A stretch of DNA of 64,000 nucleotides from Promethearchaeati archaeon. Its GTDB lineage: Archaea; Asgardarchaeota; Heimdallarchaeia; Heimdallarchaeales; Heimdallarchaeaceae. Both the position numbers and the translations under genes were made by a program. Where the stretch lies: NCBI GenBank assembly GCA_013166775.1, contig JABLTJ010000016.1:1-64000 (forward strand). Reading direction: 5' to 3'. Under the pieces are notes generated by a model that worked only from the letters and a program-made list of their open reading frames with translations, ran no database searches and was not told where the DNA came from. Of the stretch, positions 1 to 16,107 are shown in pieces. Position 1 is the first letter of the stretch; each line of letters starts with the position of its first letter.

Positions 1-1
1 C

Positions 2-1705
2 ATTTTTTTCAGTTTTATCGCATCTATTGTTGTATTAGGTGTTTTTACTCCTTCATTATTAGGTTTTGCTTACTATTATGGAATGAACCTGCTAATTAGC
101 TGTCTAATAGCAGTTTTTTATGGGAGTATTCAATTACTCATTCTGTCTAATCATTTAAAAGAGATATACAAAGAAGGTGAAAAAGAAGAAAATGTTCCTC
201 TTAACAAACTATCTAATTTTCTTAAAAAAATTCTTCCATGGATATTGTTTAATCTCTCTTTAGGATTTTCCTTCTTCTTCTTATTCTTTATAGGAATCGA
301 GAAGTTTGAGTTTGGTTCTATGATCTCATTAATTGTAATAACACTACTGTTTACTCTCTTTCTTAATATTATAATGTGGAAAAAAACTATACTATGGATA
401 GGAAAGAAAGTAATTTCTCTCTCATACTTTTTTTCAGAATTATCTAAACAAACTATCAAACTATCAAGGAGGTTAGTAAAGGACAGTTATCGTGTGATTC
501 AGTTACTCATTCTGTTTCTTATAATCTGTACTTTTTTCCTTTCAAGTTTTGATACTATAAATAACTTCAACTCTTTCAATGATGAACAAAATCAAGTTGG
601 GGAGATGATAATTAGTTTTCAACCTGAAAAAACGAATATTGTAAACGCTAACATAAGTGACTTAGTAGAGAGTTCAGTGGAAATTCAATCATCAACAACA
701 TTACTAGATAGTATCTCTATTGAAGCAAGTGGTGGAATTTCACGTTTAGTGGACATATATCTTATTAATAGCAGTAAAATACAACGGCTTTTCAATTCGA
801 TATCGATAAAGGAAAGATACGCAGGTAACTTTAATACCCAAGAAATTGCTAGCGAGTTAGAAACAAACCTGAATTCAGCTATTGTTAATAAAGCATTAGC
901 ACAATTATTATCCATTCAACTGCAAGGTTCATTTAACCTACCAATCCCTGTTGAAAATGACGAATATACTGATTCAAGAATAAATTATAGATTGTCTGCA
1001 CTTGATTCTGTTAGTTTTATTCCATTCTTTTCTGGTATTTCCTTGGAAAGACCATTTGCAATTTTAAATGATAAGACCATTTCTACTACAAATAATGCTT
1101 CTGTACAAACAGTTTATCAGATCTTATGGTTGAAAGAAACTATCTCAAAAGATGCATTCAACAAAAATATTCGAGCATTAAATGAAAACAGCTCTACTCA
1201 AATTGAGGTTGTAGAACAATTTGAGTTTCCTATAATTACAGATGATTATTGGGTACCTGCTGTTTTTCAACAATTTATGGTTTCTTTATTAACAGTTTTT
1301 GTTGTATGTTTATTCCTCTTCTTCTTAGCTTTCTATTCTGATACCATTGATAAACAGATGAAAGGATTTAGAATTTTCTTTGCTCGTGGATTATCTTTTA
1401 AGAAGGGAATCTCTCTTGTTATGTTACCGTTATTCTTATTTACATTGTTTTATATTATTTTTAGCTATGTAGTAGGTTTGATATTATCATTTGTGATGTT
1501 AACTGCAATTCAACCTAGATATTATCTAAGAATACGAATTTCTATTGTTCCTTTCTCATCCATCTTTCTGAGTTCTCAAATAATATTATTAGGGGCGATT
1601 CTCTTTGCTTCTGGGATTAGTTCTTATAGAAAATTGAGAAAGCAGATTCCTGAAGTTAAGTTCAATGTTCCTTCAGTTTTCCAAGAGGAGGAGAGTTTTA
1701 TTTGA
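2..1705 (+). CDS. FtsX/MacB-like ABC transporter permease (5'-partial)
   Basis: The frame of ORF 83..1705 stays open back to position 2 (IFFSFIASIVV...). Multiple TM segments, a large extracytoplasmic loop and a C-terminal FtsX-like 'FFARGLSFKK' segment. Operon with a LolD-type ATPase. Confidence 0.7.
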   Translation: MFFSFIASIVVLGVFTPSLLGFAYYYGMNLLISCLIAVFYGSIQLLILSNHLKEIYKEGEKEENVPLNKLSNFLKKILPWILFNLSLGFSFFFLFFIGIEKFEFGSMISLIVITLLFTLFLNIIMWKKTILWIGKKVISLSYFFSELSKQTIKLSRRLVKDSYRVIQLLILFLIICTFFLSSFDTINNFNSFNDEQNQVGEMIISFQPEKTNIVNANISDLVESSVEIQSSTTLLDSISIEASGGISRLVDIYLINSSKIQRLFNSISIKERYAGNFNTQEIASELETNLNSAIVNKALAQLLSIQLQGSFNLPIPVENDEYTDSRINYRLSALDSVSFIPFFSGISLERPFAILNDKTISTTNNASVQTVYQILWLKETISKDAFNKNIRALNENSSTQIEVVEQFEFPIITDDYWVPAVFQQFMVSLLTVFVVCLFLFFLAFYSDTIDKQMKGFRIFFARGLSFKKGISLVMLPLFLFTLFYIIFSYVVGLILSFVMLTAIQPRYYLRIRISIVPFSSIFLSSQIILLGAILFASGISSYRKLRKQIPEVKFNVPSVFQEEESFI

Positions 1706-4353
1706 AATTAACTAGACTCATCTTTAAAGCAAAAAAGAAGATTTTGCTAGTTGAATTATTCATAATAATTGCTATTTTTCTAGTTTCAAGTTTATCTTTT
1801 ACTTACTATTTGAATTCATATAGAACAGAATGGATAGGTTTAGTGAATTCTCACGACGAACCAGATTTACAAATTGAGCTTACACAACCCTTTTGGGTGT
1901 TTCTGGAGGGAAAAGATGATTTAAACGAAGAACTTGAAAACTTTCAGTATTTAGCTATAACGTCTCTTCCATCTCATTTATTTAAATTAGTATTTGAAAA
2001 TATCACCATCGAAGATTATAATTTATACATCCTCAATTCCGAAATACTGGAGTTTTTTGGATACGATCTTTCAGGTAATGAAACGTTATTAACAACAACT
2101 TACGAAAATAATATAGATTCAAGTGAAATTACTGCTAACTTTGTACTTCAATCCGGTTTAAGCAACACAACAATAACAGATATTTTCAACCAAACTTTAC
2201 TCTATAGTGCTATTTTCGGTTCTAGAAATATTGAGCATCTATCTACTTATGCTAATACTAGTCTTATACTGTCAGAATCCTATTTTAACAATCTTCTTTC
2301 ATCCATTGATGAAGCAACATTGTTAAACATTACACAAAACTTCCTCACTCATTCCTTTTACACTTTTTCCTGGAATAAATCAGAATTAATAAACGCCCTT
2401 CCCTCAAAGCTTTTTGAAATTCATAAAGAGTGGAATCATGAACGAATAGCAGTATTTTCACAGATGTATATACCAAATTATGTTCGATATGAGGAATTTA
2501 ATATTAGTGCAAATCAGATATTTTCTGACAAAATTAGTGATTTATTAACGGAATTAGACAGTATTCTAATAAGTACTATAATTATCCTCTTTTTTCTTTC
2601 CTTAACATCAATCATCTTCTTATTTCAGTTCCTAAGAAGTAGAACAGCTTTTTTCAGCAAAATTTCCTTGATTCTCTCATCAAGAGGATTAAAAGGAAAA
2701 TCTGTAAAATCGAGATTTTTAGTTCTACACTCTAGTACTCTATTATTTTCTATTACATTATTCTTTGGTTTTGTTTTGATCTTGTTATATTCTTATGAAC
2801 TTATTATGTGGAATTATTCTTATCTCGTCATAGGTGTTTCTACTAGTATAGTTTTCTTTTCACTTCTTACCATGCAAATCAAGCTAGTTCAAACATTAGA
2901 CATACAAACAAAAACAGAAGGAACAAAAAAGAGTTCTCGGTCAAGATCACAAATTATTGATTTTGGTCTTAAACTTGGTTTGGGATTGGTAATCTTTATA
3001 GCTTCAACCTCTATTCTTTCTTTCAATCAGTGGTTTCTTAATATTTTTTCCATAACTATCAGTACGTTATGGATAATAACTTGTAGTTTAAGCGGAGTGA
3101 TAGTTTTAATACTCCTCTTACCAACTCTCATTAGCAAACTAATCATTCCTTTAACAAAATTAATTCTAAGAAATTTCTCACATTTTCATTCCGCAGTATC
3201 AAGATTGTTTGAACAACTAGCTCGACAAAAAAGGATTGTATGGACAAGTATTTTCTTTCTTCAGATGCTTTTTTCTTTGATCATAATTGGTCCCAATCTA
3301 TTTATAACCCATCAAGAACAAACTGAATTAAGCTCATATTGTTATAATGTATCATTAGTGGTAGAAACTGAATCCGTATCTGAAATCCAAGATTTAGTTT
3401 GGAACAAACCTTCTATGATAGCTTACGTTGAGCCCATTTATATATCACAATTTCAGCGTAGGGATATCTATATTTACTTAGATGATCCTATGGCTTTTTT
3501 CAACGGTGTTCATTTCTTTGGAAATTATTTCAAGAAAAGGAGCAGTTCTCAAGTTTTTACCATGCTAAGTTCATCTAAAGACTTCTTTGTTACAACCCGT
3601 TTTAAGGCAGATGAGGGACAATTTAGCATAGGAGATTTAGTTAGTTTATACAAGAAAGATGTCAATGGTTCTAATATCGAGGAAAAGAAAATTCTATTAG
3701 ATATTGTTGATTTTCTCCCATTCTTCTCAATTTTCTTTGATGAAGAGTATATGAACATCTTTTTGATGAAATATGATGAATCTACACACATCTTAAACAA
3801 AAACCATTATGCAATATTCAGTTTTCAAGCCGAACAAGAAGCAGAGGAGGAGAATTTCTTTACAAACCTAAAAGAAGAGAATTTGATGTTTAATGTTATT
3901 CATAGTTTTTCTCAGTCTACACTAATACAGAATACTCAACCAAGCTTTGTCTTAAAAGTGTTAAAACTTCCAATTTACTTTCTTATCGTATTAATTCCAA
4001 GTTTAGTGTTTCTGCTCTTTTTTGATGTTAGAAAAAGAGGTACAGAATCATTTTCATTCTTAATTCGAAGAGGATTTCGTGGTAAAAATGCAAAATCACT
4101 AACATTCTATTGGTTTTTTATTCTATCTATTTTTCTAACTTTAATTTCATTTCTTTATTCAGTTTTAGTACTATTGCCAATGATTTTTATATTAAATTTA
4201 ACATATATTATGCCAATGCGATTAACCATTAATTGGATTTCATTGTTGATTGTTATCCCGATTCTATTTTCAGTATTTATGTTTCCAGTATCAATTAAAG
4301 AAGACAGCAAAATTAAATCACATCTCATGAAAAAACGGAGTAGAAATAAATGA
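1702..4353 (+). CDS. FtsX/MacB-like ABC transporter permease, two-repeat type
   Basis: 883 aa with two TM blocks, each containing an 'SRG/RRG' motif (LSSRGLKG, LIRRGFRG). TTGA overlap with the upstream gene and ATGA overlap with the downstream ATPase. Confidence 0.7.
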   Translation: MKLTRLIFKAKKKILLVELFIIIAIFLVSSLSFTYYLNSYRTEWIGLVNSHDEPDLQIELTQPFWVFLEGKDDLNEELENFQYLAITSLPSHLFKLVFENITIEDYNLYILNSEILEFFGYDLSGNETLLTTTYENNIDSSEITANFVLQSGLSNTTITDIFNQTLLYSAIFGSRNIEHLSTYANTSLILSESYFNNLLSSIDEATLLNITQNFLTHSFYTFSWNKSELINALPSKLFEIHKEWNHERIAVFSQMYIPNYVRYEEFNISANQIFSDKISDLLTELDSILISTIIILFFLSLTSIIFLFQFLRSRTAFFSKISLILSSRGLKGKSVKSRFLVLHSSTLLFSITLFFGFVLILLYSYELIMWNYSYLVIGVSTSIVFFSLLTMQIKLVQTLDIQTKTEGTKKSSRSRSQIIDFGLKLGLGLVIFIASTSILSFNQWFLNIFSITISTLWIITCSLSGVIVLILLLPTLISKLIIPLTKLILRNFSHFHSAVSRLFEQLARQKRIVWTSIFFLQMLFSLIIIGPNLFITHQEQTELSSYCYNVSLVVETESVSEIQDLVWNKPSMIAYVEPIYISQFQRRDIYIYLDDPMAFFNGVHFFGNYFKKRSSSQVFTMLSSSKDFFVTTRFKADEGQFSIGDLVSLYKKDVNGSNIEEKKILLDIVDFLPFFSIFFDEEYMNIFLMKYDESTHILNKNHYAIFSFQAEQEAEEENFFTNLKEENLMFNVIHSFSQSTLIQNTQPSFVLKVLKLPIYFLIVLIPSLVFLLFFDVRKRGTESFSFLIRRGFRGKNAKSLTFYWFFILSIFLTLISFLYSVLVLLPMIFILNLTYIMPMRLTINWISLLIVIPILFSVFMFPVSIKEDSKIKSHLMKKRSRNK

Positions 4354-5036
4354 GTAAAAAACAAGAGAAAATTATCCAGATTTTTGATTTACTTCATGTG
4401 TATAAAGGGAAAGTTGAAACCATCGCGCTTTCTGGAATAAATCTTTCTGTAACTAAGGGTGAAAGATTGGTTATCAGAGGAAAATCTGGTGTAGGGAAAA
4501 CTACTCTTTTACATTGTTTAGCAGGAATACTCAAACCTACAGCAGGTAAGATTTTAGTGGAGAAAAAGGACATAATAGATCTCAATGAAGATCAGCAAGC
4601 AGACTATAGATGTCAAACAGTTGGTCTAATCTACCAGTCCTACAATCTAGCTCCATTTCTTACAGTCAAAGAGAATATAGAATTCCCAATGATTTTAGCA
4701 AAAAAAACACAAGAAAAAATCGACAAACATGTAGATGAACTTACAGAGATTCTCGAGATTGAAAGGTATCTTGAGCAAAAACCAGAGTACCTGAGTGGAG
4801 GAGAACAACAAAGAGTAGCTATTGCAGTAGCTTTAGCCAATAATCCCCCAATAGTTCTCGCAGATGAACCCACTGGGAACATTGACGTAGAAACATCCCA
4901 AATCATTTACGAACATTTGTCAAGAATGTGCCAAGTTTATGGTACAACACTAATAATTGCATCACATGATCCAGATGCTTCTAAATATGCTGATAGAGAA
5001 ATTTTACTCACAAAACTGCAATCAAGAAACCTATAG
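4350..5036 (+). CDS. ABC transporter ATP-binding protein, LolD/MacB family
   Basis: Walker A GKSGVGKT, signature LSGGEQQRV, Walker [10 protein letters not shown]-loop SHD. Confidence 0.95.
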
Positions 5037-5164
5037 TTAGAGATTATAGGAAAACAAGTAAGTTCATTTGAAAATGAAATATTTATTCACTGATTATGTT
5101 TATAATATATTTCTACAGTTTTGGATTTATCTAATCTTTTAGTGAGTAAAAGTTTGTCATAAAA

Positions 5165-5430
5165 TTTCCTTGGGGTTTTTAGGGTGAAGTGTAGTCTAGT
5201 ATGCAGATAGGCAAGAATTACAACCGTAAAAGGCCCAAACCCGTAATTCTTCGCTTATCCCCTAAAAGGAAAAAGGAGTTGAAAGAGAAGAAGTATAAGT
5301 AGTTCTTTTGGGATCTTAATCGAATTCCTGACGCAATTATACACGTAGAACTGTCAGTGGTTCCTCTACTGGTTTAACAGAACAGACTAGAAGAGGAACC
5401 ATTGATGTTAACTAATTCGATTATGATTTT
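5165..5430 (+). ncRNA. Putative structured non-coding element upstream of tnpB (IS left end and/or ncRNA)
   Basis: Nested stems: 5177-5184/5260-5267, 5206-5212/5253-5259, 5213-5221/5243-5251, 5317-5326/5414-5423 (10 bp perfect) and 5353-5367/5392-5406 (15 bp, 2 G-T). G-T pairs favour folding of the + strand. Confidence 0.55.
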
Positions 5431-5467
5431 ACGTTTATTAAACTAACAATTTTAGGAGCTAAAACTC

Positions 5468-7036
5468 ATGAAAATTGAAAAAGAAAATAAACAAAAAGAA
5501 CTAAAAAATAGACTCAAGAAATATGAGAAGCAAGAAGAAGCTACAAGCACACTTCAAGCACCATCTATCTCTGGTTACTATCATGTTAAGATTAGGATAA
5601 AAACAGAACGGATGACTGCTCAAGAGTGCGATAGGTTGAGAATAATTACCAACCGAGATACAAGAATCATCAAAGACTACCTAAGAATCATCTATCACAA
5701 CGAGGAAAAAATTCTACGAAACGATAGTAAAGTCGCTAAAACTCAATTGGATAAATTGACTTTAACAACTTCTAAGAAAACGCAACACAAGTTACGGACA
5801 ACTGTTCCTCACGACTTAAAGAAAAGTTATCCTCGCTGTTCACATGATGAATTCATCGAATGCAGAGATAAAGCTATCTGGACTTATGAAAGTTGGAAAG
5901 CACAACAAAAACAATCCAAAGAGGATCTGAGTAGACCACAATTCAAGAAAAAAACTCCCAGAATATATTACAAAGGATTAGAACATAGAGGTACGTTTCG
6001 AGTGATACCCACTCCTGATAATACCTTAGCTAAACTTTGGCTAGATTTAAGGGATTCTCTTGATACGAAACGTTCTGGTAGAACAAATCATAAGCGACTG
6101 ATGCTACCATTAGCTTATTCACCTTATCACAAAAAGAAGCTGATACTAGATAATGTCAAAACGTTAGAACTAGTATATAAATCCAAAGAGCAACAGTGGT
6201 GTGCACATTTCACCCTCCAATATACTGTCCCTCTTTACCAATCTACACAACCACCCGCAGTGTTGGGAGTTGATTTAGGAATAAAGAAGACAGCGGTTGC
6301 AGTATTACTTACCCCCACAGGTAAAGTGATCATGGAAGAACTCTGTTTCATTGTCAATAAGGAAAGACAAGCTAAGATGTGGAGACTAGAAAAACAGATT
6401 AAATCTATTCAGAGAGAGTTAGATACAAGGAATTACAATGGTCAACCCCATAAACAGCTTAACGTCAAACTCTACCAACTACGTAGAAGACTTCGCTCTG
6501 TTACACAACAAGAACTGGGATATGCAGTTAACCAACTCGTTGATTTCATTCTCCAGTTGAAGAAACAGTATAATCTGTTTGTGTCAGTTGGCTATCCTAA
6601 GTACATTCGGAAAAGTCAGCCTCGTGGAAGTGGAAACAAATCCTTACGTCGTCAACTACATAAGTGGTGTTATCGCCTCTTTATAACCAAACTACAGCAC
6701 AAACTAACACAGCATGGATTTGAACCCCATCGAGTCGTTGCAGTCAATGAAAGCTGGACCTCCCAACGATGTTCAAAGTGTAATTCGCTTAACACTACTC
6801 GAACAAAACAAGGAAAGTTCAATTGCCACGATTGCAACTACGAAATCAATGCTGATTTGAACGGAGCAAGAAACATAGGAAAAAGGTTGATCAAATATGC
6901 GTTGAAACCAGAGCATGGTTATACTAGTATTCGAGATACACTAACAAATGACTACCACTCTCTAAAGCTATACAAATGCCTCCAACCCTTAAGTCAGTGG
7001 CTTAAGTATTCTGTGAAGAATTTATCGTCTCGTTAG
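5468..7036 (+). CDS. tnpB: TnpB-family RNA-guided endonuclease with rearranged RuvC active site
   Basis: RuvC-I LGVDLG (D269), RuvC-II position VSVGYP (G375), VNESWTSQRC (E428), Zn ribbon CSKC...CHDC, RuvC-III NADLNGARNI (D463). SD-like AGGAG upstream. Confidence 0.92.
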   Translation: MKIEKENKQKELKNRLKKYEKQEEATSTLQAPSISGYYHVKIRIKTERMTAQECDRLRIITNRDTRIIKDYLRIIYHNEEKILRNDSKVAKTQLDKLTLTTSKKTQHKLRTTVPHDLKKSYPRCSHDEFIECRDKAIWTYESWKAQQKQSKEDLSRPQFKKKTPRIYYKGLEHRGTFRVIPTPDNTLAKLWLDLRDSLDTKRSGRTNHKRLMLPLAYSPYHKKKLILDNVKTLELVYKSKEQQWCAHFTLQYTVPLYQSTQPPAVLGVDLGIKKTAVAVLLTPTGKVIMEELCFIVNKERQAKMWRLEKQIKSIQRELDTRNYNGQPHKQLNVKLYQLRRRLRSVTQQELGYAVNQLVDFILQLKKQYNLFVSVGYPKYIRKSQPRGSGNKSLRRQLHKWCYRLFITKLQHKLTQHGFEPHRVVAVNESWTSQRCSKCNSLNTTRTKQGKFNCHDCNYEINADLNGARNIGKRLIKYALKPEHGYTSIRDTLTNDYHSLKLYKCLQPLSQWLKYSVKNLSSR

Positions 7037-7039
7037 ATT

Positions 7040-7270
7040 CGATAGGATAGGTAGAGAATCTATCATCTACTTAGATTCAATAGATTCAGTAATGAGTTCC
7101 CTCTCGTAACGAGAAATGATTCCTTTGAACAGATTTGCATCATTGTATGCCTCTGTTCCAGAAGACTAGTAACTGCTTACACTATGAATCGATTATCTTT
7201 TCATTTTGTACAGTTTTGCTACAATGTAGAAACCTATTTCTGCATTCATTCTACACTGGTTTAGGAGGAG
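7040..7270 (+). ncRNA. Putative omegaRNA/reRNA scaffold plus guide
   Basis: Directly 3' of tnpB. Stems 7056-7062/7072-7078, 7102-7106/7110-7114, 7127-7133/7152-7158, 7169-7172/7177-7180 and 7223-7232/7237-7246. TnpB guide RNAs are known to derive from the element right end. Confidence 0.6.
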
Positions 7271-7436
7271 TCTCGAAACGACCTTCACAAGAACTGCAAA
7301 GTTTTTGGGAAGAGAATAACTCATCGTAACTTCTGTCAACTCTTGTAATACCATATTCCTCAAAAATATCGTCTTCTTTCTTCCCTTTTTTTCTTTTTTT
7401 TACTTGCATAATCGTTTTTTTTGAGAAAAGCTTCAT
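7251..7436 (-). CDS. Small hypothetical protein with a basic patch, a copy of the Vps22-like C-terminal segment and CxxC
   Basis: 61-aa ORF. FEEYGITRVDRSY matches FEENGIARVDRSY of the adjacent EAP30 protein. TATA-like element near 7461-7470 on the minus strand. Confidence 0.45.
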   Translation of the reverse strand: MKLFSKKTIMQVKKRKKGKKEDDIFEEYGITRVDRSYDELFSSQKLCSSCEGRFETPPKPV

Positions 7437-7508
7437 TCATTATGAATTCCTAGCATAATTCAATATAATCTCTTGAAATATGGTAAACTAAATGGAGCTA
7501 AATTCTAC

Positions 7509-7535
7509 GATTTTCAAGCGACTTACTTGAAAATC
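7509..7535. terminator. Perfect 10-bp inverted repeat downstream of the ESCRT-II gene (terminator or operator)
   Basis: GATTTTCAAG-N7-CTTGAAAATC, about 20 nt past the stop of 7557..8291. Confidence 0.4.
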
Positions 7536-7556: not shown

Positions 7557-8291
7557 TTAACTTATCAACCCAGGGAACCAATATTTCGTCCCTGCTGCAT
7601 AACTTCTGTCTACTCTTGCTATCCCGTTTTCCTCAAAGAAAGTTAAGCATCTATCAATACGCTCTTCGTTCCAGTCTGTTCTCATTAACAAATCTTCTTT
7701 TGTAACATATCCTTCACGTGAAGCATAATTTAGGATAACATCATGGTCTTGACTGAACTCTACAGTAGTAAATTCAACTATCTTAGTTCCTGATTCAAGA
7801 GTCTTGTACGGAGAAATAAGTTGAGCATTTATTAGTTTCTCCAGTGATCGATACATATCATCAATCGAAACCATCTTTCCTGGACGAGTTTTGTTTAACT
7901 GAGTGAATAACTCACCTAATGACATTATTCCCCCATTTTCAGGTGTAAGTTTTTGACCTAGCTCGATAATTTCATTTGCCAAAATGTCATAAAAACCTCT
8001 ACCTGTAAGTTTGTCTTTTAGAGTGGGGGTTTCCTGCCAATCAAAACGTCCAATTTCCATGGGTAAACCAAGTTCTTTTCTTAAATCAGCAAGTTTTTCA
8101 TAATAATCTTTGTTTTCAGTTATTTTATCACCAAATTTCTTCTCAAATTTCTTCAATTGTTTTTTAATTTCTCCAATATTCCCTATCATTTGCTCTAATT
8201 CTTTAATCATCAATTCTGCATCTTTAACTTGGAATGCTGATTTAACCTTGATTTTTTTCTCTATGTCTCGTAATCCCAATTCAATCTCCAA
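7557..8291 (-). CDS. ESCRT-II subunit, EAP30 domain (Vps22/Vps36-like)
   Basis: FYDILANEIIELGQKLTPENGGIMSLGEL, VSIDDMYRSLEKL, WNEERIDRCL and terminal GIARVD...YWFPGL follow the Vps22/SNF8 tandem winged-helix pattern. ESCRT-I and ubiquitin context. Confidence 0.9.
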   Translation of the reverse strand: MEIELGLRDIEKKIKVKSAFQVKDAELMIKELEQMIGNIGEIKKQLKKFEKKFGDKITENKDYYEKLADLRKELGLPMEIGRFDWQETPTLKDKLTGRGFYDILANEIIELGQKLTPENGGIMSLGELFTQLNKTRPGKMVSIDDMYRSLEKLINAQLISPYKTLESGTKIVEFTTVEFSQDHDVILNYASREGYVTKEDLLMRTDWNEERIDRCLTFFEENGIARVDRSYAAGTKYWFPGLIS

Positions 8292-8364
8292 CTATTTATT
8301 GTCTAGCAATTATTTATATCTTCGCAAATCTAAAACACTTCTTTCAACATTACTTTACTTAAAT

Positions 8365-8679
8365 TTAAATCAAACCTGGTAATGATTGTATCCAACTCAT
8401 TATTTTACTAACAAGATGATTTGCTTCTCTGGGGGTTAAAAACGAAGCTAGTTTGTTTTCATATTTATTGTACAATGAATTATAAACATCTCTCATCTCT
8501 ATTCCCATATTAGAACCGATTTCACTCATTTTTTGAACTTCATATGATAATTCCTCTATTTCTTCGAGGATATATCCTATGTCGATTTTTATCTCAATCA
8601 TATTTACAAGTTCAAATAAATCCTTCCTTATGTTGATGAACATAGTATTGAGAACATTTCTCTTATCCAAGAAATTCAC
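8365..8679 (-). CDS. Hypothetical helical protein, possibly a stand-alone Vps28 C-terminal-domain homologue
   Basis: About 100 aa, four amphipathic helices that align by eye with the last ~95 aa of the upstream ESCRT-I protein. The start may be the TTG 9 nt downstream (AGGTGA SD-like motif). Confidence 0.55.
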   Translation of the reverse strand: MNFLDKRNVLNTMFINIRKDLFELVNMIEIKIDIGYILEEIEELSYEVQKMSEIGSNMGIEMRDVYNSLYNKYENKLASFLTPREANHLVSKIMSWIQSLPGLI

Positions 8680-8749
8680 CTTGTTATTCTGACCTCATGG
8701 AGTGAAAGAAAAAGAAAATCGCATAAACTACATAACATCGTTATTGCCA

Positions 8750-10159
8750 TTACAATTCTTTCAAAACTCTTCTGAAATCATTAAGCCATCGAGCTGCTTG
8801 AAATTCTAGTTTTTCACAATCTTCTTCTTTTATTACATCTTGAGGTTTGTATTTTGACAGAATGTCTCGCCAATTATTTAAATCCCCTATTACCCAATGA
8901 TCTTCAGGTATGGATGGAAATGTTTTCAAGATATGAAGCATTTCATCAATATCTGCTAATAACAAATCTGCTCGAGCTACTGAACGTAGTCTTGTTAGAT
9001 CTATCAATTCAATCGCAGAAGAAACAAAATCTGCTGTTTTAGAAGGCATCTTCTTCAGAGTATCAAATGGTATGGAAACTGCTTCTGTTGTTTCAACTCC
9101 TTCTGCAACTCGCAGTTGTCTTATACCTTCAGAATATCTTTCATCCAATTTTTCTCGCTTAACGAATTCTTCAAGGTTGAATCCTGTTTTCTCTAATTGC
9201 ATTCGAGCTTTGAATATTCCTCTTAATAGCGATCTAAGTTGTTTTCTATATGCAATTTGCTCAACTTCGTTATTTTCAAAACCTTGAGTTAAATTATCTA
9301 GGGTTACAATTGAAGCAAATAAATCAGCTTCTAATTCAAGTATTTTTTCTTCTTCTTTTGTCATACCATCACTTTTGTCAACTCTAATTTTGTTAAGCTG
9401 TTTCTCAGCTTTATAACCTTTTTTAGAGTATCTTCTATGAAGTTTGTAAAAGTCTAAATTTGTTAAATCTCCATCTTCAAATTTCTCCTGAATTGTCTCA
9501 AGAGTATCCTCTATAGCATTAACTTCAGCTTTTAGATTATCCTCTCTTGATATGGGAATTTCTTTTGTCTCAATTTTAACTCCCCCTTCCTTCAGAAGAG
9601 CTTCTCTTTCTTTTTCTATGTTCCTGCTAATGTTTTCAATCTCTTTTTGATAATCGACAATCGATTTTTCTATTGATCGCTTTTCTTCACTTATTTTTAG
9701 ATCAACTTCTGGAGCCTTAGCTTGAACTAGAGGAAGCTGTCTTGTTGGAATTGGATATACTTGAAGCGTAGATTCACGTTCTTCTTTTTTTACTCTTTTC
9801 ACTTTAGTTTTATATGCTCTTGCAGGAACTTTAGTGAAAAGATCTTGTATATCATTTATCACTTCATATATGTTGTAGTTTTTTTTCCAATTAGATAGAA
9901 TCCGTAAGCTTAAAGTTTCATTATCTTCAACATTAGGATGGTTAACTTTCGGTGTAATGTCTACAAAGGGTGGAATATCAGGAAAACCATCTTGAATCCA
10001 GATATTTGCAAAAATAGGTATCTCTGTTCCTTCAATTATACCTACAAAACCTTTCCAATGTTTAAGATTACCTCTAACTGGTTCAAATCCTGACGCGTTT
10101 TCATAAATTAACTGTGCTTCATTTGCGAGGAGGAAATCATCTGTGGATATTTGTCTCAC
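8750..10159 (-). CDS. ESCRT-I fusion protein: UEV domain + coiled coil + Vps23 steadiness box + Vps28
   Basis: UBC fold (FPDIPPFV, HPNV..ETLSLRIL with Ser at the E2 catalytic Cys position). Steadiness box IEDTLETIQEKFEDGDLTNLDFYKL. Vps28 N-terminus ADLFASIVTLDNL...Y...LRSLL. Vps28 four-helix CTD. Confidence 0.88.
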   Translation of the reverse strand: MRQISTDDFLLANEAQLIYENASGFEPVRGNLKHWKGFVGIIEGTEIPIFANIWIQDGFPDIPPFVDITPKVNHPNVEDNETLSLRILSNWKKNYNIYEVINDIQDLFTKVPARAYKTKVKRVKKEERESTLQVYPIPTRQLPLVQAKAPEVDLKISEEKRSIEKSIVDYQKEIENISRNIEKEREALLKEGGVKIETKEIPISREDNLKAEVNAIEDTLETIQEKFEDGDLTNLDFYKLHRRYSKKGYKAEKQLNKIRVDKSDGMTKEEEKILELEADLFASIVTLDNLTQGFENNEVEQIAYRKQLRSLLRGIFKARMQLEKTGFNLEEFVKREKLDERYSEGIRQLRVAEGVETTEAVSIPFDTLKKMPSKTADFVSSAIELIDLTRLRSVARADLLLADIDEMLHILKTFPSIPEDHWVIGDLNNWRDILSKYKPQDVIKEEDCEKLEFQAARWLNDFRRVLKEL

Positions 10160-10239
10160 CTTATTTCTATATCTCTAATAAATCATGGCTATCAAACTTT
10201 AAAAAATATTGCATTCAAGAACCACTATTTTATAATCAA

Positions 10240-11247
10240 CTAAAGCTTTTCTATTTTTATAACAATTTTAATTGGTTTTGCTAGATTTTTATCTAAAATA
10301 TATGCAACAGATTTTTCCTTTAACTGATTTTCAACAACGTTTTTACCTTCTAATAATTTTCCCTCAACCATTAAATCAGGTTTCTCTAAACCATAAGTTA
10401 ATGCTAATCTAAGCATAAGGTCTTTGATTGTTTCAGTAGGATGAGCAACAAATTCAATCTGTTCTAATTTGTACAATTCTCCGCAAGCTGGGCAATCTTC
10501 TGTTCTTGCTAATGGAATGATAGTAGTTGCATTATTGAGACCATCATAGAACATATAGTTCTCTAGAGGTGCTCCTAATTCAAGGATGAGTTTTAGAGAT
10601 TCTTGAGCTATCATCCCACCAATAATACTTGATAATGTTGCCACAGCAGGTAGTTTAGCTTCTACCTCTTCTTCTTCTCCTCTATCCTTTTTCCTTTCTT
10701 CACCAAAGGGAGTACATGCTTGTGCTAGTTCTTCATCTGGTACTAAAGGCTGACATTCAAAACATGCAGTTTTATATGGGATAATTACTTGTACATCACC
10801 TAAAAATGCGAACATTCCTCCTAGTATAAGGGGCTTTTTTACTCTTATTGCCATAGAACTTATCCATCTTCTACCAATGAACGTATCAAGGCAACCAATA
10901 ATTACATCTGCCTTCTCATATACTGAAGCTTTGACTTCTTCCATTTTTTTATGATAAAACTCTATCTCTATCTCTGGGTTAATCTCCTTTAGTCTTTTAG
11001 AAGCTACTTCCGCTTTAGGTTTTCCTAGATCCTCCTCACGAAAGAGTAGTTGTCGATTTAAGTTGGAAAGTTCAATTGAATCAAATTCAATAATAACAAG
11101 CTTTCCGATGCCTGAAGATGCTAAAATAGTAGCAACATAACTACCTATTGCTCCTACTCCTATAAGAATAACAGTACTGTTATCCAATGTTGTTTGGTCC
11201 CATCCTGGAATAAGTGATTGACGAGAGTATCTGTTATCATCTGGCAT
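10240..11247 (-). CDS. Ubiquitin-activating E1-like enzyme (ThiF/MoeB domain + catalytic Cys + C-terminal ubiquitin-fold domain)
   Basis: RYSRQ, GVGAIG, SNLNRQLLF, Zn pairs CFEC/CPAC, additional ACT Cys in the crossover loop. Adjacent to ubiquitin. Confidence 0.92.
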   Translation of the reverse strand: MPDDNRYSRQSLIPGWDQTTLDNSTVILIGVGAIGSYVATILASSGIGKLVIIEFDSIELSNLNRQLLFREEDLGKPKAEVASKRLKEINPEIEIEFYHKKMEEVKASVYEKADVIIGCLDTFIGRRWISSMAIRVKKPLILGGMFAFLGDVQVIIPYKTACFECQPLVPDEELAQACTPFGEERKKDRGEEEEVEAKLPAVATLSSIIGGMIAQESLKLILELGAPLENYMFYDGLNNATTIIPLARTEDCPACGELYKLEQIEFVAHPTETIKDLMLRLALTYGLEKPDLMVEGKLLEGKNVVENQLKEKSVAYILDKNLAKPIKIVIKIEKL

Positions 11248-11400
11248 AAAGGCGCACCTTTAATCAATATCTTTCTTACTGAAACTGATATATGTTTCTT
11301 TTCAATCTAACAATCTATAGAAAATAATGAAATTATAGTTAAAAATAACGTAGAATGATGCTTTTGATCGTTTAACAAAAGTGGAGAAGTAATTGTCTGA

Positions 11401-11637
11401 TTAAAAACCACCTTTGGTTCTTGCAATCAAATAGCACTTGTCTCCGTCCATCATACCTGTCTGTTTTAAAATTTCACTGTCATCAAGTTGTTTTCCGTGA
11501 AAAACAATGATAACTGTATTAGCGGGTATTTTTTTCTTCTTCGCTACTTCTCTTTTTAATTGAGCCACTGTTGAATGTGGATCTACATCTAGTTCGATTG
11601 ACCCTCCACCGATAGCTGTTACTACTGAAATACGCAT
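11401..11637 (-). CDS. Ubiquitin-like protein (eukaryote-type), C-terminus GG-F
   Basis: MRISVVT...VFHGKQLDD...LIARTKGGF aligns with ubiquitin (IFAGKQLED, LVLRLRGG). Start moved to ATG 11637. Confidence 0.93.
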   Translation of the reverse strand: MRISVVTAIGGGSIELDVDPHSTVAQLKREVAKKKKIPANTVIIVFHGKQLDDSEILKQTGMMDGDKCYLIARTKGGF

Positions 11638-11752
11638 TTTATCAAACACCAAATTCTTTCTACTTTTTTATTGACTTATTCATTATTAAAGCTTACCAAA
11701 TTGTTTTGTGAATAAAAGTGCAAAAAATCAAAACAAAAAACTGAATTATACA

Positions 11753-12142
11753 TTATTTTACAGATCTCTTCTTTTCTCCCTTTCTTTTAATTGTAATAGA
11801 TGGTGGAATACCTTCTATATCTCTCTCTAATTTCTTAATTCCTATTCTTGTAACTTGCTTTCCTTCCATGAAACCTATTTTTATCATATAAAGAACGTTC
11901 TTGAAAATCGTTTCTGCTGTCTGTTTTTTATCCGAACTCTCGTATAATTGTATCCAATACTCATATGCTTCTGGTACTAGAAAAAATTGCATCAGCGCTA
12001 ACTTATCTTTCTCTTCTACGCTTTTTGGAGCTTCTTCTGCTTCTTTTAATTCTTCCATTCTTCTCTTTCTCTGTTCTGCGATTCTTAGAAGCTCTTGGGT
12101 TTTTTTTTCCCTAATTTTTTCTAATTCCTTATCTTCTGTCAT
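11753..12142 (-). CDS. PDCD5-like (dsDNA-binding domain) protein, divergent
   Basis: N-terminal DKELEKIREKK, L.PEA motif, C-terminal ITIKRK typical of the PDCD5/MTH1615 family. Confidence 0.65.
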   Translation of the reverse strand: MTEDKELEKIREKKTQELLRIAEQRKRRMEELKEAEEAPKSVEEKDKLALMQFFLVPEAYEYWIQLYESSDKKQTAETIFKNVLYMIKIGFMEGKQVTRIGIKKLERDIEGIPPSITIKRKGEKKRSVK

Positions 12143-12305
12143 ATCACTACACTATCATTATGAGACTGCTCACGTAGCATTTAAGTTTACTTTTCTTAAA
12201 CATAAACCAACATTCAATTCATATTTTTTAAATAAAAGAAATGCTTGGGAAAACATTATATTATGTCTTCAAACCCCTTTATTGAAATTTATCAGAGTTG
12301 ATGAA

Positions 12306-13736
12306 ATGGATTTGGCTATTGTAAATGCTTGGATTTTAACTCTTGCGAAAAACAGGCTAGGCATAATTAAAAATGGAACTATTGGGATAGAAGGAGATAG
12401 AATAGGTTTTATTGGGTCTACAGACGATATTGACACAAAGAAAATTGATGTAATTATTGATGGTAAAAATCACTTAGTTATGCCTGGTTTGGTTAACTCT
12501 CACATTCATACTAGTTTAACACTCTTGAGAGGGGGAGCTCAAGATTTACCTGAAATAGAATGGATGAATAAAGGAATAGGACCCTTAGCTAAGCATTTAG
12601 ATTCAAAGGATCTAATTCTTGGTTCAAAACTTGGTGTGCTAGAAGCAATAAAGACTGGTACTACAACTTTTTCTGAATATACTAGAGATGTTGCAAGATT
12701 AGTTGAACAAGTTTACCTACCTATAGGTGCCCGAGTTGTAGCTACTGAAACGATTAACGAAGTAGCCCAGGTTAATAAAGCCGCTTTGAAGCCTTCTGAT
12801 CTTTATGAATTTGATAATAAGAAGGGACAACAAGCTTTAACTAAGAATGACCAATTATTTGAAAAATACAAAAACAAACCTTTAGTTAGTTGTATGTATG
12901 GGCCTCAAGCACTCGATATGGTGTCTTTAGATACTTTGAAAACTATAAAAGAAAACGCTATTTCTAGAAATAGTAAAATTCATATGCATGTTGCACAGGG
13001 GAAAAGAGAAAGATTACAAATAACTGGAAGATTTGGAAAAGATGCTTCAACTGTAAAAGTATTAGATAATCATGAGCTTTTAGATAATTATTTAGTAGCT
13101 GTACATTGTCACGATACAGAAGAGCAAGAAAGAGAACTTATGGTCTCAAAAAATGTAAAAATGGTGGGATGTCCGAGCTCTATTAGTATTATCGATGGCA
13201 TTATCCCTCCTATTTATCATTATTTCAGTTTAGGAGGGAAAGTAGGGATTGGAACTGATCAAGCTCCAGGTCCAGGAAATCATAACCTCTTTAGAGAAAT
13301 GAGAACTATTAGTCTTCTCACAAAAACGCAATTTAGAGATCCAACGGCTTTTCCTTCATGGCAAATGTTATTTTTAATTACTATTTTCGGAGCAGAGATT
13401 CTTGGATTGGAAAAAGAAATAGGTACATTGGAAATCGGTAAAAGAGCAGACGTTATTTCTTTTGATATGAATAATCTACTTCTAACTCCAATGGTATCGA
13501 ATCCTTTCCATAATTTTATACCTAATTTAGTACATTCAGCAACTGGAACAGAAGTAGATAATGTGATAATCGATGGTAAACTAATCATCCATCAAAGAAA
13601 ATTCACATCTATTAATGAACAAAAAATAATTGACGAAGCAAATAAAAGAGCAGAAAAAATCTTCGCTGATGCTTCAGATGATTGGAAAGCCGCAGGATCA
13701 CAAATGGTAAAAGATGTAGAAAAAGGTTTGATATAA
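12306..13736 (+). CDS. Metal-dependent amidohydrolase, MtaD/SsnA/TrzA-like
   Basis: MPGLVNSHIH, HMHVAQ, AVHC, GTD, GTLEIGKRAD. True start is probably MDLAIVNAW at 12306; the longer ORF is an antisense overlap with the PDCD5-like gene. Confidence 0.88.
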   Translation: MDLAIVNAWILTLAKNRLGIIKNGTIGIEGDRIGFIGSTDDIDTKKIDVIIDGKNHLVMPGLVNSHIHTSLTLLRGGAQDLPEIEWMNKGIGPLAKHLDSKDLILGSKLGVLEAIKTGTTTFSEYTRDVARLVEQVYLPIGARVVATETINEVAQVNKAALKPSDLYEFDNKKGQQALTKNDQLFEKYKNKPLVSCMYGPQALDMVSLDTLKTIKENAISRNSKIHMHVAQGKRERLQITGRFGKDASTVKVLDNHELLDNYLVAVHCHDTEEQERELMVSKNVKMVGCPSSISIIDGIIPPIYHYFSLGGKVGIGTDQAPGPGNHNLFREMRTISLLTKTQFRDPTAFPSWQMLFLITIFGAEILGLEKEIGTLEIGKRADVISFDMNNLLLTPMVSNPFHNFIPNLVHSATGTEVDNVIIDGKLIIHQRKFTSINEQKIIDEANKRAEKIFADASDDWKAAGSQMVKDVEKGLI

Positions 13737-15251: not shown

Positions 15252-15794
15252 TTATGCTAATTCCTTATTTGCTTCTTCAACTAATAGTTCTGCAATTTTA
15301 GTGAAAGCATTGTCAACATGATCTCCAGTAAGCGCACTTGTTCTGATATAATGAAGGCTTTTAAGTTTCTTATGGGTTTCTTGACACTCTTTGTCTGATA
15401 CCGCAATCTGATTTTTGAGGTCTTGTTTATTTCCTACCAGAACTTTAACAACAGAAGAACCGCAGTTATCAATAAACTCCTTGTCCCATTTCTTTAAGTC
15501 ACTAAGGGTTGCTTCTCTGGTAAGATCAAAGACTAATAATGCTGCCTTAGCACCCTTGTAGAAAGTGTGTCTGATAAAACGAAATCGTTCTTGTCCTGCA
15601 AGATCCCAGATAGAAAGCGCTACATGTGTACCATTTTTTAATTTCACATGTTTCTCCGAAGGTTCCATTCCTATTGTCATAAGATATGAACTGTCAAATC
15701 TGTCGTGAACAAAACGCTGAACTAGACTGGTTTTTCCTACAGCAGCGTTTCCAAGTAATAAAATCTTGAAATTAAAATCCGGTTGGCTACTCAT
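15252..15794 (-). CDS. Rab-like small GTPase (Ras superfamily)
   Basis: G1 GNAAVGKTS, G2 TIG, G3 WDLAGQERF, G4 NKQD, G5 TSA. RabF-like FYKGA and LVFDLT. No C-terminal prenylation Cys. Confidence 0.95.
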   Translation of the reverse strand: MSSQPDFNFKILLLGNAAVGKTSLVQRFVHDRFDSSYLMTIGMEPSEKHVKLKNGTHVALSIWDLAGQERFRFIRHTFYKGAKAALLVFDLTREATLSDLKKWDKEFIDNCGSSVVKVLVGNKQDLKNQIAVSDKECQETHKKLKSLHYIRTSALTGDHVDNAFTKIAELLVEEANKELA

Positions 15795-15795
15795 T

Positions 15796-16107
15796 TTACT
15801 CATCTTCTAGTATCTTAATTATGGTCTCAATCTCCTCTTTGAGACTAGTCAAAAAGAATCTTTCGAAACTTCCTGCAGCTCTATCAATGGTAGATAATGA
15901 AATACAAAGATCTTCTATTACATCCTTATGATCTTTCTCAGAATCAGTAGGGCTGTGTTTTCTTATTTTCTTTTGAGCCCTCTTTGCCAGAACTGAAGCT
16001 GTTTTTCGATCTAAAGCTCCTTTTTCATAAGCTGAAACAATGGTTAGCATCCATGATGCAACTTGTTCTAACTTATCAAACTCTTCAAGAGGGGAAAGTT
16101 CGGTCAT
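15796..16107 (-). CDS. Hypothetical all-helical protein coupled to the GTPase
   Basis: 103 aa. Its stop lies 1 nt before the GTPase ATG at 15794. Confidence 0.75.
   Translation of the reverse strand: MTELSPLEEFDKLEQVASWMLTIVSAYEKGALDRKTASVLAKRAQKKIRKHSPTDSEKDHKDVIEDLCISLSTIDRAAGSFERFFLTSLKEEIETIIKILEDE

Follow-up and report, generated by a model that had tools for sequence, protein, structure and literature searches.

A ubiquitin-ESCRT gene cluster of the AB_125 type appears in this genome to have been interrupted by an accessory island, with a contig break falling within a two-copy repeat and with no dispersal of the genes; we consider this reading probable. On this reading, the locus looks like half a cluster because the island parts two convergent operons and because the assembly broke inside the island. 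The window, a stretch of 64,000 nucleotides of contig JABLTJ010000016.1 (C27 below), comes from a member of the Heimdallarchaeaceae whose assembly is a MAG of 115 contigs (k=141; 4.5% contamination).

Gene complement of the ubiquitin-ESCRT system

A first-pass annotation had described six co-oriented minus-strand ORFs at 7557-12142, with a TnpB gene beside them; their coordinates and domains are borne out (Table 1), and the EAP30 and Vps28 calls have HMM support. It is also correct that no gene for E2, E3, DUB, Vps25, Snf7, or Vps4 lies inside 7557-12142. Each gene of the cluster is single-copy in the assembly. The ubiquitin combines a β-grasp domain with a C-terminal GG and is 92-99% identical to its congener orthologues. 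The domains UQ_con/UEV, Vps23_core, and VPS28 are all found by Pfam in one 469-aa protein, and motif inspection (HPN...LSLRIL) indicates that Ser replaces the catalytic Cys of its first domain, which is therefore a UEV. This fusion is kept in congener loci throughout the genus; in the examined loci of genomes from two other groups of the order (f3 and f4), Vps23 and Vps28 are encoded separately. The AB_125 orthologue of the fusion protein has been tested biochemically and binds ubiquitin (PMC9192718).

Table 1. Features of the window and of the ESCRT-III unit on contig C1
Feature	Coordinates	Strand	Details
Accessory island, right part	1..7319	.	Permease, 883-aa membrane protein, ABC ATPase, TnpB unit
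Permease, 5'-truncated	2-1705		Island right part
883-aa membrane protein	1702-4353		Island right part
ABC ATPase	4350-5036		Island right part
TnpB	5468..7036	plus	Island's last gene; PF07282 (Cas12f1-like_TNB) 1.5e-15
EAP30 3' relic, decayed	7320..7523	minus	Profile positions 167-233; three in-frame stops
ESCRT-II Vps22/36-like (EAP30), intact	7557..8291	minus	244 aa; PF04157 3.3e-22
Four-helix bundle p104	8365..8679	minus	104 aa; AF2 pLDDT 90
Single-chain ESCRT-I, UEV + Vps23 core (steadiness box) + Vps28	8750..10159	minus	PF00179/PF05743, PF09454, PF03997
E1-like ThiF-family activating enzyme	10240..11247	minus	335 aa; PF00899 4.4e-61
Ubiquitin	11401..11652	minus	83 aa; PF00240 4.8e-14; C-terminus ...KGGF
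PDCD5-fold protein p129	11753..12142	minus	129 aa; opens co-oriented unit
Two ESCRT-III (Snf7) paralogues and Vps4 (MIT + AAA + Vps4_C)	C1:273809-276381
Vps25	C1:276405-277169		PF05871 5e-19

The whole-genome HMM search that the first-pass annotation had proposed finds E2, RING, JAMM DUB, Vps25, ESCRT-III, and Vps4 genes elsewhere in the assembly. C1 carries a pair of ESCRT-III genes together with Vps4 and Vps25 at 273.8-277.2 kb, so that ESCRT-II is represented by EAP30 in the window together with Vps25 on that separate contig. At 21.1-27.8 kb, contig C102 has an operon that encodes E2, a JAMM DUB, and two RING proteins as well as a second Ubl and E1, and there is a further E2 at C1:94.9 kb and a further JAB protein on C56. 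The E2-like inventory comprises four proteins, two E2s, both with the catalytic Cys, and two UEVs, both lacking it; the JAMM motif is intact in both JAB proteins. The genome as a whole thus encodes E1, E2 with the catalytic Cys, RING E3, and JAMM DUB. It should be noted that genes for E2, E3, and DUB were not found beside the ESCRT cluster in any congener locus examined, and that in one congener, G001, the E2/E3/DUB operon is on a different contig from the ESCRT cluster.

Gene order in relatives and the position of the break

Vps25 and EAP30 lie tail to tail, 10-35 nt apart, in all 21 congener loci that extend beyond EAP30 (21/21, AB_125 included; 12/12 in the initial set), and the gene order on both sides of this pair is the same in the congener loci. 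ESCRT-III, Vps4, and Vps25 also adjoin EAP30 in two further genera of the family and in three further families, the exception being the G025 locus, in which none of the three was found next to EAP30. In G046, a closed genome of the same family, a different TnpB lies between Vps4 and Vps25. The comparison with relatives lacking the TnpB, likewise suggested by the first-pass annotation, thus favors a split, since the half-composition is not shared. The annotation had offered two explanations, that the rest of the cluster is encoded elsewhere or that the cluster was split by rearrangement, and each is partly true: the missing genes are on C1 and C102 and the cluster is split, although the split is best read as an interruption by one accessory island and not as a dispersal of the genes.

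As the first-pass annotation recognized, the system is already described; both it and the UEV-Vps23-Vps28 fusion are published (Hatano et al. 2022, Nat Commun 13:3398, PMC9192718; Makarova et al. 2024, mBio 15:e00335-24, PMC10936438). AB_125, of the same genus, shares the fusion (69% identical) and the inventory of two E2 and two UEV proteins, and the gene order of its locus (L059) is identical as far as contig MEHH01000089 extends; unlike in AB_125, Vps25 and Vps22/36 are here apparently parted by an accessory island that includes TnpB and measures at least 18 kb, and the operons are on different contigs. In Asgard archaea vps25 is typically co-directed with vps4 and ESCRT-III, and vps22 with vps23 and vps28 (PMC10936438). 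The present locus has exactly this two-unit layout, and what had been called the cargo-recognition half corresponds to one of these units, but in this family the ESCRT-I/II unit differs from the general Asgard locus in including ubiquitin, E1, and the PDCD5-fold gene and in having Vps23 and Vps28 fused.

Relative to the congener order, the break is within the last codons of EAP30. Beyond the Vps25 stop, C1 keeps 23 nt, reaching to C1:277192, that match the ancestral end of EAP30 (...PGLMGF*). On the window side, the intact EAP30 has a C terminus (...AAGTKYWFPGLIS) unlike the genus consensus (...SEGTKYWFPGLMG[LMY]) when C termini are compared, and a decayed EAP30 3' relic sits between this gene and the right end of the island, abutting the point, 7324, at which island homology stops. 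The relic scores 27.3 bits against the genus EAP30 profile, compared with at most 5.6 bits for shuffles (200 in 6 frames), and 4e-6 by tblastn. It has about 60-65% nucleotide identity to any congener EAP30, whereas orthologues of G000 and G006 retain 83% identity at third positions and are far less diverged; on this comparison, a simple recent insertion plus duplication would not account for the divergence of the relic. With respect to a donor lineage, alignment scores favor G016/G001-like congeners (111 and 107, with 71 for G000's own gene), but as the identities are all 60-65%, no origin is claimed.

The accessory island, its second copy, and the contig ends

The assembled island spans at least 18.1 kb, and the whole is probably about 19-20 kb. 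Its cargo includes HerA-like ATPase, HEPN, DUF7019, NYN, and SAP genes and an FtsX-like/ABC transporter module, with TnpB at the right end. The TnpB shares the C-terminal Cas12f1-like TNB zinc-ribbon domain with those of IS200/IS605-type elements but, unlike these, is accompanied by a much larger cargo, which includes the HEPN and HerA-like ATPase genes and the transporter module. Neither TnpA nor an integrase was identified in the island, nor were terminal repeats; a comparison of its two outer ends for direct or inverted repeats gave chance 10-11-mers only. Neither the 883-aa protein nor a 300-aa ORF flanking on the C1 side has a homologue in G001, G004, G006, or G007; the proposal that the ABC module or the C1 flank is core genome displaced by a reciprocal inversion was rejected on these grounds.

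A second copy of the island is associated with contigs C6 and C93. The right part has an 80% identical paralogue on C93 (75.6% between window 4967-7324 and C93:9304-11651), homology ends at about window 7324, and no convincing signal of a neighboring-gene relic is seen in the 286 bp beyond the right end of the second copy (C93:11652-11937). Nothing in the second copy corresponds to the left 6.8 kb of the C1 part; what is treated here as one island may therefore instead be nested insertions. The genes flanking the second copy on C6 and C93 are neighbors, 3-10 kb apart, in at least 14 congeners, and G006 has a 52-bp empty site at this locus.

The first 144 nt of C27 and C93 are identical, and the last 144 nt of C1 match the first 144 nt of C6 in reverse complement; a search with end k-mers found no contig in the bin bridging the end of C1 and the start of C27. 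The permease lacks about 340 N-terminal codons, judged from a paralogue on C51, and the smallest contig in the bin is 1506 bp, from which we infer a missing repeat of about 1-1.5 kb. These 144-nt forks, together with the fact that the flanks of the second copy are neighbors in relatives, make it most likely that C1 is joined to C27 across the unassembled repeat. The order would be the C1(+) end, the repeat, and the C27(+) start, collinear with relatives, which argues for insertion and not dispersal.

The 2x2 fork of contig ends also permits the other pairing, C1 to C93 and C6 to C27, in which a crossover in the central repeat would have left the operons far apart or inverted. Identity between the two island copies climbs to 95-100% toward the missing repeat, a sign of recombination, and suggests that the copies have recombined or been homogenized there. 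Such true dispersal would, however, need an extra event, whereas with the parental pairing both loci regain synteny with relatives together, and the C1(+)/C27(+) orientation matches that of the 21 congener loci exactly; we therefore regard dispersal as improbable, though deserving some weight. A far smaller probability attaches to an artifact in which window 1-7324 is chimeric or mis-binned and the real cluster is uninterrupted. The contamination and fragmentation of the MAG and the existence of 80% identical paralogous copies would allow this, but on both contigs conserved ESCRT genes give way to accessory DNA, and a degraded fragment of one and the same EAP30 3' end is found at each junction, a pattern that chimerism would not produce; in addition, the bin has no contig with an uninterrupted Vps25-EAP30 junction, the ESCRT genes being single-copy. 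That the split is ancestral, the relatives having joined the operons secondarily, has a negligible probability: no point was found in its favor, EAP30 relics flank the break on both sides, and it is refuted by the proximity of ESCRT-III, Vps4, and Vps25 to EAP30 in the congeners, other genera, and other families.

According to the preferred reading of an interrupted cluster, the ancestral layout would have been a p129-ubiquitin-E1-fusion-p104-Vps22/36 operon tail to tail with an operon of ESCRT-IIIa, ESCRT-IIIb, Vps4, and Vps25. The island would have inserted within the final codons of Vps22/36 in this one genome among the congener loci. The presence of two diverged island copies with a near-identical center would have caused the k=141 assembly to break there, leaving ESCRT-III, Vps4, and Vps25 in the end region of C1 and the ubiquitin and ESCRT-I/II genes in the start region of C27. 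Since both operons are single-copy and intact, with the insertion falling between convergent units, the pathway would be functional and run as in relatives: the UEV would bind ubiquitin-tagged cargo, which would be relayed from the Vps28 domain to Vps22/36, Vps25, and ESCRT-III, with Vps4 acting last, while E2, RING E3s, and the JAMM DUB would be supplied by the separate C102 operon, as in G001.

Two small conserved proteins and implications

The description of the 129-aa ORF as PDCD5-like holds at the level of fold but not in Pfam or PDB-sequence searches. The protein has no Pfam match at E ≤ 1, a profile of 9 homologues retrieves no PDCD5 chain among PDB sequences, and an hhalign comparison with the canonical PDCD5 of this genome (PF01984; C35:56729-57031) is not significant. 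Its AF2 model, with a pLDDT of only 72, has the N-terminal long helix and helical core of the PDCD5 fold, although the PF01984 HMM does not match. The best 8 VIA matches are all PDCD5 (Z 8.5-5.2, the first being PDB 6iqc at 8.5), with unrelated matches at 5.0 or below, and Foldseek gives a probability of 0.99 with 25-26% identity to Sulfolobus solfataricus PDCD5. As modeled, p129 is a divergent PDCD5 paralogue, at fold level only. A match is present once per genome in 28/28 other genomes of the family, and p129 adjoins ubiquitin in every congener locus that reaches that far; in closed genome G046, p129, ubiquitin, and E1 are kept together, inverted as one block. Among the papers searched, none names PDCD5 together with Asgard and ubiquitin.

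For p104 there is no Pfam match at E ≤ 1, and a PDB-sequence profile search gave nothing meaningful. The first Foldseek match of its model is the Vps28 C-terminal domain (2j9w_B; TM 0.72/0.75, rmsd 2.3 Å), and the VIA Z score for this domain (12.1) is tied with those of designed bundles and CheA P1 (12.6-12.8); there is no profile similarity to an alignment of fusion and Vps28 proteins (hhalign probability 0.2). The protein occurs in every congener locus and in two further genera of its family; it is absent from the examined loci of other families. Separately encoded Vps28 C-terminal domains have been reported in Asgard archaea (PMC10936438), and p104 is possibly a free-standing adaptor resembling this domain. 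[quoted passage not shown]

The significance of these observations beyond correct annotation is small. With every component present and intact, a score of partial or reduced for the ubiquitin-ESCRT system would be wrong for this genome, and the case suggests that apparent "half clusters" in MAGs can arise when an island has inserted and the contig breaks within a repeat. The analysis also flags two conserved unnamed genes, p129 and p104, in a system whose AB_125 proteins have already been studied biochemically, and the locus, if joined as proposed, would be a case from nature of convergent ESCRT operons that withstand being about 20 kb apart.

The ubiquitin-E1-ESCRT-I-ESCRT-II unit

The segment at 7557-12142 holds six ORFs, all co-oriented on the minus strand, and four of them are assigned by Pfam (table), which bears out the ubiquitin-E1-ESCRT-I-ESCRT-II gene group of the first-pass annotation together with its EAP30 and Vps28 calls, the VPS28 domain being part of a 469-aa fusion. 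Because the HPN motif of this fusion is followed by LSLRIL and the Cys-bearing loop that would stand there is absent, the protein is a UEV and not an E2. Its close homologues are from Candidatus Heimdallarchaeota MAGs, including AB_125 (MEHH01000089, 69% identity), whose UEV-Vps23-Vps28 fusion and the ubiquitin binding of that fusion have been described (Hatano et al. 2022, PMC9192718); the same paper describes the entire gene set as clustered in Heimdall genomes.

The label "PDCD5-like" for the 129-aa protein (p129) holds at the level of fold but not of sequence. In comparisons of its model (pLDDT 72), PDCD5 structures outrank all else, occupying the top eight VIA rows (Z 8.5-5.2) with a Foldseek probability of 0.99, but p129 has no match in Pfam or among PDB sequences. 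Since a canonical PDCD5 is encoded elsewhere in the genome, p129 represents a second, divergent copy. A search of 28 other genomes of its family gave one p129 match in each, and the gene adjoins ubiquitin in every locus from genomes of the same genus (congeners) that extends that far.

The 104-aa protein (p104) is present in all congeners (49-93% identity) and is confidently modeled as four helices (pLDDT 90). Its best PDB match by Foldseek is the Vps28 C-terminal domain 2j9w_B (TM 0.72/0.75, rmsd 2.3 Å), with 2g3k and 2j9v also among the matches to this domain; by VIA-align, these Vps28 C-terminal domains (Z 11.4-12.1) are on a par with designed bundles and CheA P1 (Z 12.6-12.8). Profile comparison with the Vps28 part of the fusion itself detects no similarity. 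A reasonable reading of fold and context is that p104 may be a free Vps28-CTD-like adaptor; separately encoded Vps28 C-terminal domains have been reported from Asgard genomes (Makarova et al., PMC10936438).

Between p129 and PIG-L lies an amidohydrolase gene which, among the congeners examined, occurs only here and in G006; its domain begins at residue 192 of ORF 11901-13736, the 5' extension over the p129 gene is unnecessary for the domain, and the gene marks a small site of variable content next to the cluster. Farther out, a Ras-family GTPase gene overlaps a 103-aa ORF that has no Pfam match, and this pair is kept at a distance of two to four genes from the cluster wherever the congener loci extend far enough, as well as in two further genera of the family.

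Features of the locus and related genes (positions without a contig name are in the window, which begins contig C27)
Feature	Location	Strand	Basis or remark
TnpB	5468-7036	+	Pfam
Decayed EAP30 fragment	7320-7523	-	profile positions 167-233
EAP30 (Vps22/36)	7557-8291	-	Pfam 3.3e-22
p104	8365-8679	-	four-helix model
UQ_con/UEV + Vps23_core + VPS28, one 469-aa protein	8750-10159	-	Pfam
ThiF-family E1	10240-11247	-	Pfam 4.4e-61
Ubiquitin, C-terminal end KGGF	11401-11652	-	Pfam 4.8e-14
p129	11753-12142	-	PDCD5-fold model
Amidohydrolase	12333-13736	+	
Ras-family small GTPase and 103-aa ORF	15252-16107	-	PF00071, 2.5e-47 (GTPase)
Snf7, Snf7, Vps4 (MIT + AAA + Vps4_C), Vps25	C1:273809-277169	all +	
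Ubiquitin-system operon	C102:21.1-27.8 kb (L010:9171-15789)		separate
Second E2	C1:94.9 kb		HAN...RICVGV
Second UEV-coiled-coil protein	C1:162.8 kb		
Second JAMM protein	C56		
Second EAP30-family match, 244-aa open frame	C2:50554-51213 (L017)		weak, 1.7e-11; far from ESCRT genes
Canonical PDCD5	C35:56729-57031		PF01984, 99.8 bits
HerA/DUF87-TrwB-like ATPase of the island, 928 aa	C1:283969-286752 (L064:15961-18744)		
Truncated relative of this ATPase, 308 aa	C6:294-1220		in second island copy
Second island copy	C6:1-1475 + C93:1-11937 (L061, L062)		between DAGK-like gene and 153-aa ORF
Further TnpB-like fragments	C27:68910-69539 (beyond the window), C1:175275-175535		one cut by end of contig C27

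Components encoded elsewhere and synteny in relatives

The assembly (3.85 Mb, 115 contigs) is 88.7% complete. The first-pass annotation had proposed that the missing components are encoded elsewhere or that the cluster was split by rearrangement, and a genome-wide search upholds the former: ESCRT-III, Vps4 and Vps25 are on contig C1, and E2, RING and JAMM proteins on C102. The C102 operon encodes an E2 with its catalytic Cys, a JAB protein that is a JAMM DUB with the motif intact, one clear RING protein, two membrane proteins (one of 380 aa that matches RING weakly and one of 195 aa), a second Ubl (118 aa, ending ...STAG) and a second ThiF E1 (425 aa); with the pair in the window, the genome therefore has two Ub/Ubl-E1 pairs. 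The tally of two E2s and two UEVs equals that of AB_125 (Hatano et al., PMC9192718), and in the congener G001 the conjugation-enzyme operon is likewise on a separate contig. Every gene of both ESCRT units is single-copy in the assembly; the EAP30-family match on C2 may be an Asgard-specific wH-wH paralogue. In Asgard genomes vps25 typically shares its direction with vps4 and ESCRT-III, as vps22 does with vps23 and vps28 (Makarova et al. 2024, PMC10936438), so the "cargo-recognition half" noted at first is one of two known units.

The split is supported and sharpened by synteny, examined in 12 congeners and eight genomes from other families of the order, and then by re-use of 23 named loci. In 12/12, and later 21/21, congener loci extending past EAP30 the cluster is uninterrupted, with the order [496 aa][129 aa][atpC] Snf7a Snf7b Vps4 Vps25 > < EAP30 p104 fusion E1 Ub p129, the convergent Vps25 and EAP30 genes 10-35 nt apart, and PIG-L, a 222-aa gene, the Ras-family GTPase and the 103-aa gene beyond p129. 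The order is identical in another genus of the family (G041). In a closed genome of the same family (G046) all genes are together, with p129-Ub-E1 inverted en bloc relative to the ESCRT-I/II genes and a different TnpB (34-42% identical to that of the window) between Vps4 and Vps25 (L069:5718-7141), which makes this cluster the site of two independent disturbances associated with TnpB. In f3 and f4 genomes of the order, the loci examined encode Vps23 and Vps28 separately, and adjacency of p104, Ub, E1 and p129 is absent in 8/8 outgroup loci; ESCRT-III, Vps4 or Vps25 neighbors EAP30 in seven of these, with none of the three beside it in the eighth (G025). The synteny in relatives indicates that the uninterrupted cluster is ancestral and this genome the exception.

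The accessory DNA and the probable contig junction

In alignment with the junction of the closest congener, G006, C1 matches through the Vps25 stop plus 23 nt, to C1:277192, and those 23 nt encode the ancestral end of EAP30 (...PGLMGF*). In the window, an intact EAP30 gene, its C terminus slightly non-consensus, stands next to a decayed EAP30 fragment, which has three in-frame stops, scores 27.3 bits (≤5.6 bits in 1200 shuffled frames) and begins where homology to a second copy of the island stops, at 7324. The remnant and the relic together indicate that accessory DNA entered the 3' end of EAP30 at about codons 234-238 and that an intact gene copy was kept beside the relic. Nucleotide identity of the relic to any congener's EAP30 is only 60-65%, the G000 (this genome) and G006 orthologues sharing 83% of their bases even at the third positions of codons; such divergence is inconsistent with a recent duplication. 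Over a single stretch of 38 nt (7327-7364) the relic and the intact gene are 84% identical. The relic may have decayed long ago, may have been imported together with the island or may owe its state to partial gene conversion.

The C1 part of the island (277193-288008, 10.8 kb) has genes for proteins bearing NYN, SAP, DUF7019, HEPN and HerA/DUF87-TrwB domains, and window 1-7319 contains a permease gene truncated at its 5' end followed by genes for an 883-aa membrane protein, an ABC ATPase and TnpB. Homologues of the 883-aa protein and of a 300-aa ORF beside Vps25 were not found in congeners G001, G004, G006 and G007. The second copy is diverged: C93:1-5034 matches window 1-5044 at 80% and C93:9304-11651 matches window 4967-7324 at 76%, and C6:1-760 and C6:749-1230 match the C1 end region at 95 and 87%. 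It has an additional FtsX-permease/ABC pair ahead of TnpB.

The first 144 nt are common to C27 and C93, and the C1 end is the reverse complement of the C6 start over 144 nt, the characteristic pattern of a k=141 assembly graph that forks where a repeat present in two copies has collapsed. In at least 14 congeners the genes on either side of the second copy (C6:2652-3932 and C93:13922-16183) are neighbors on a single contig, separated by 3-10 kb, and G006 has a 52-bp empty site precisely between the equivalents of C6:1476 and C93:11938; the C6-repeat-C93 pairing therefore restores synteny there, and the complementary C1-repeat-C27 pairing restores it at the ESCRT locus in the correct orientation. 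By comparison with a C51 paralogue, the missing repeat should comprise about 340 N-terminal permease codons, and a contig of 1-1.5 kb holding this repeat would have been lost to filtering, since the smallest contig in the bin is 1506 bp. The identity of the two copies climbs to 95-100% beside the gap, as would suit a crossover between them instead, an explanation that we regard as unlikely. With synteny restored by the C6-C93 and C1-C27 pairings, the locus is read as probably one cluster interrupted by an island of ~19-20 kb, across a contig junction that we infer.

Implications for ESCRT function

By orthology to AB_125, for which the mechanism was proposed and partly tested (PMC9192718), the UEV would bind ubiquitin, the Vps28 domain would connect to Vps22/36, Vps25 would recruit ESCRT-III, and Vps4 would recycle it. 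Nothing suggests a loss of function: the insertion appears to lie between two convergent units, both intact, and the ubiquitin-conjugation enzymes are in their own operon. The Ub-ESCRT system of the window is one already published, and its peculiarity here is most likely a lineage-specific island insertion combined with assembly fragmentation.
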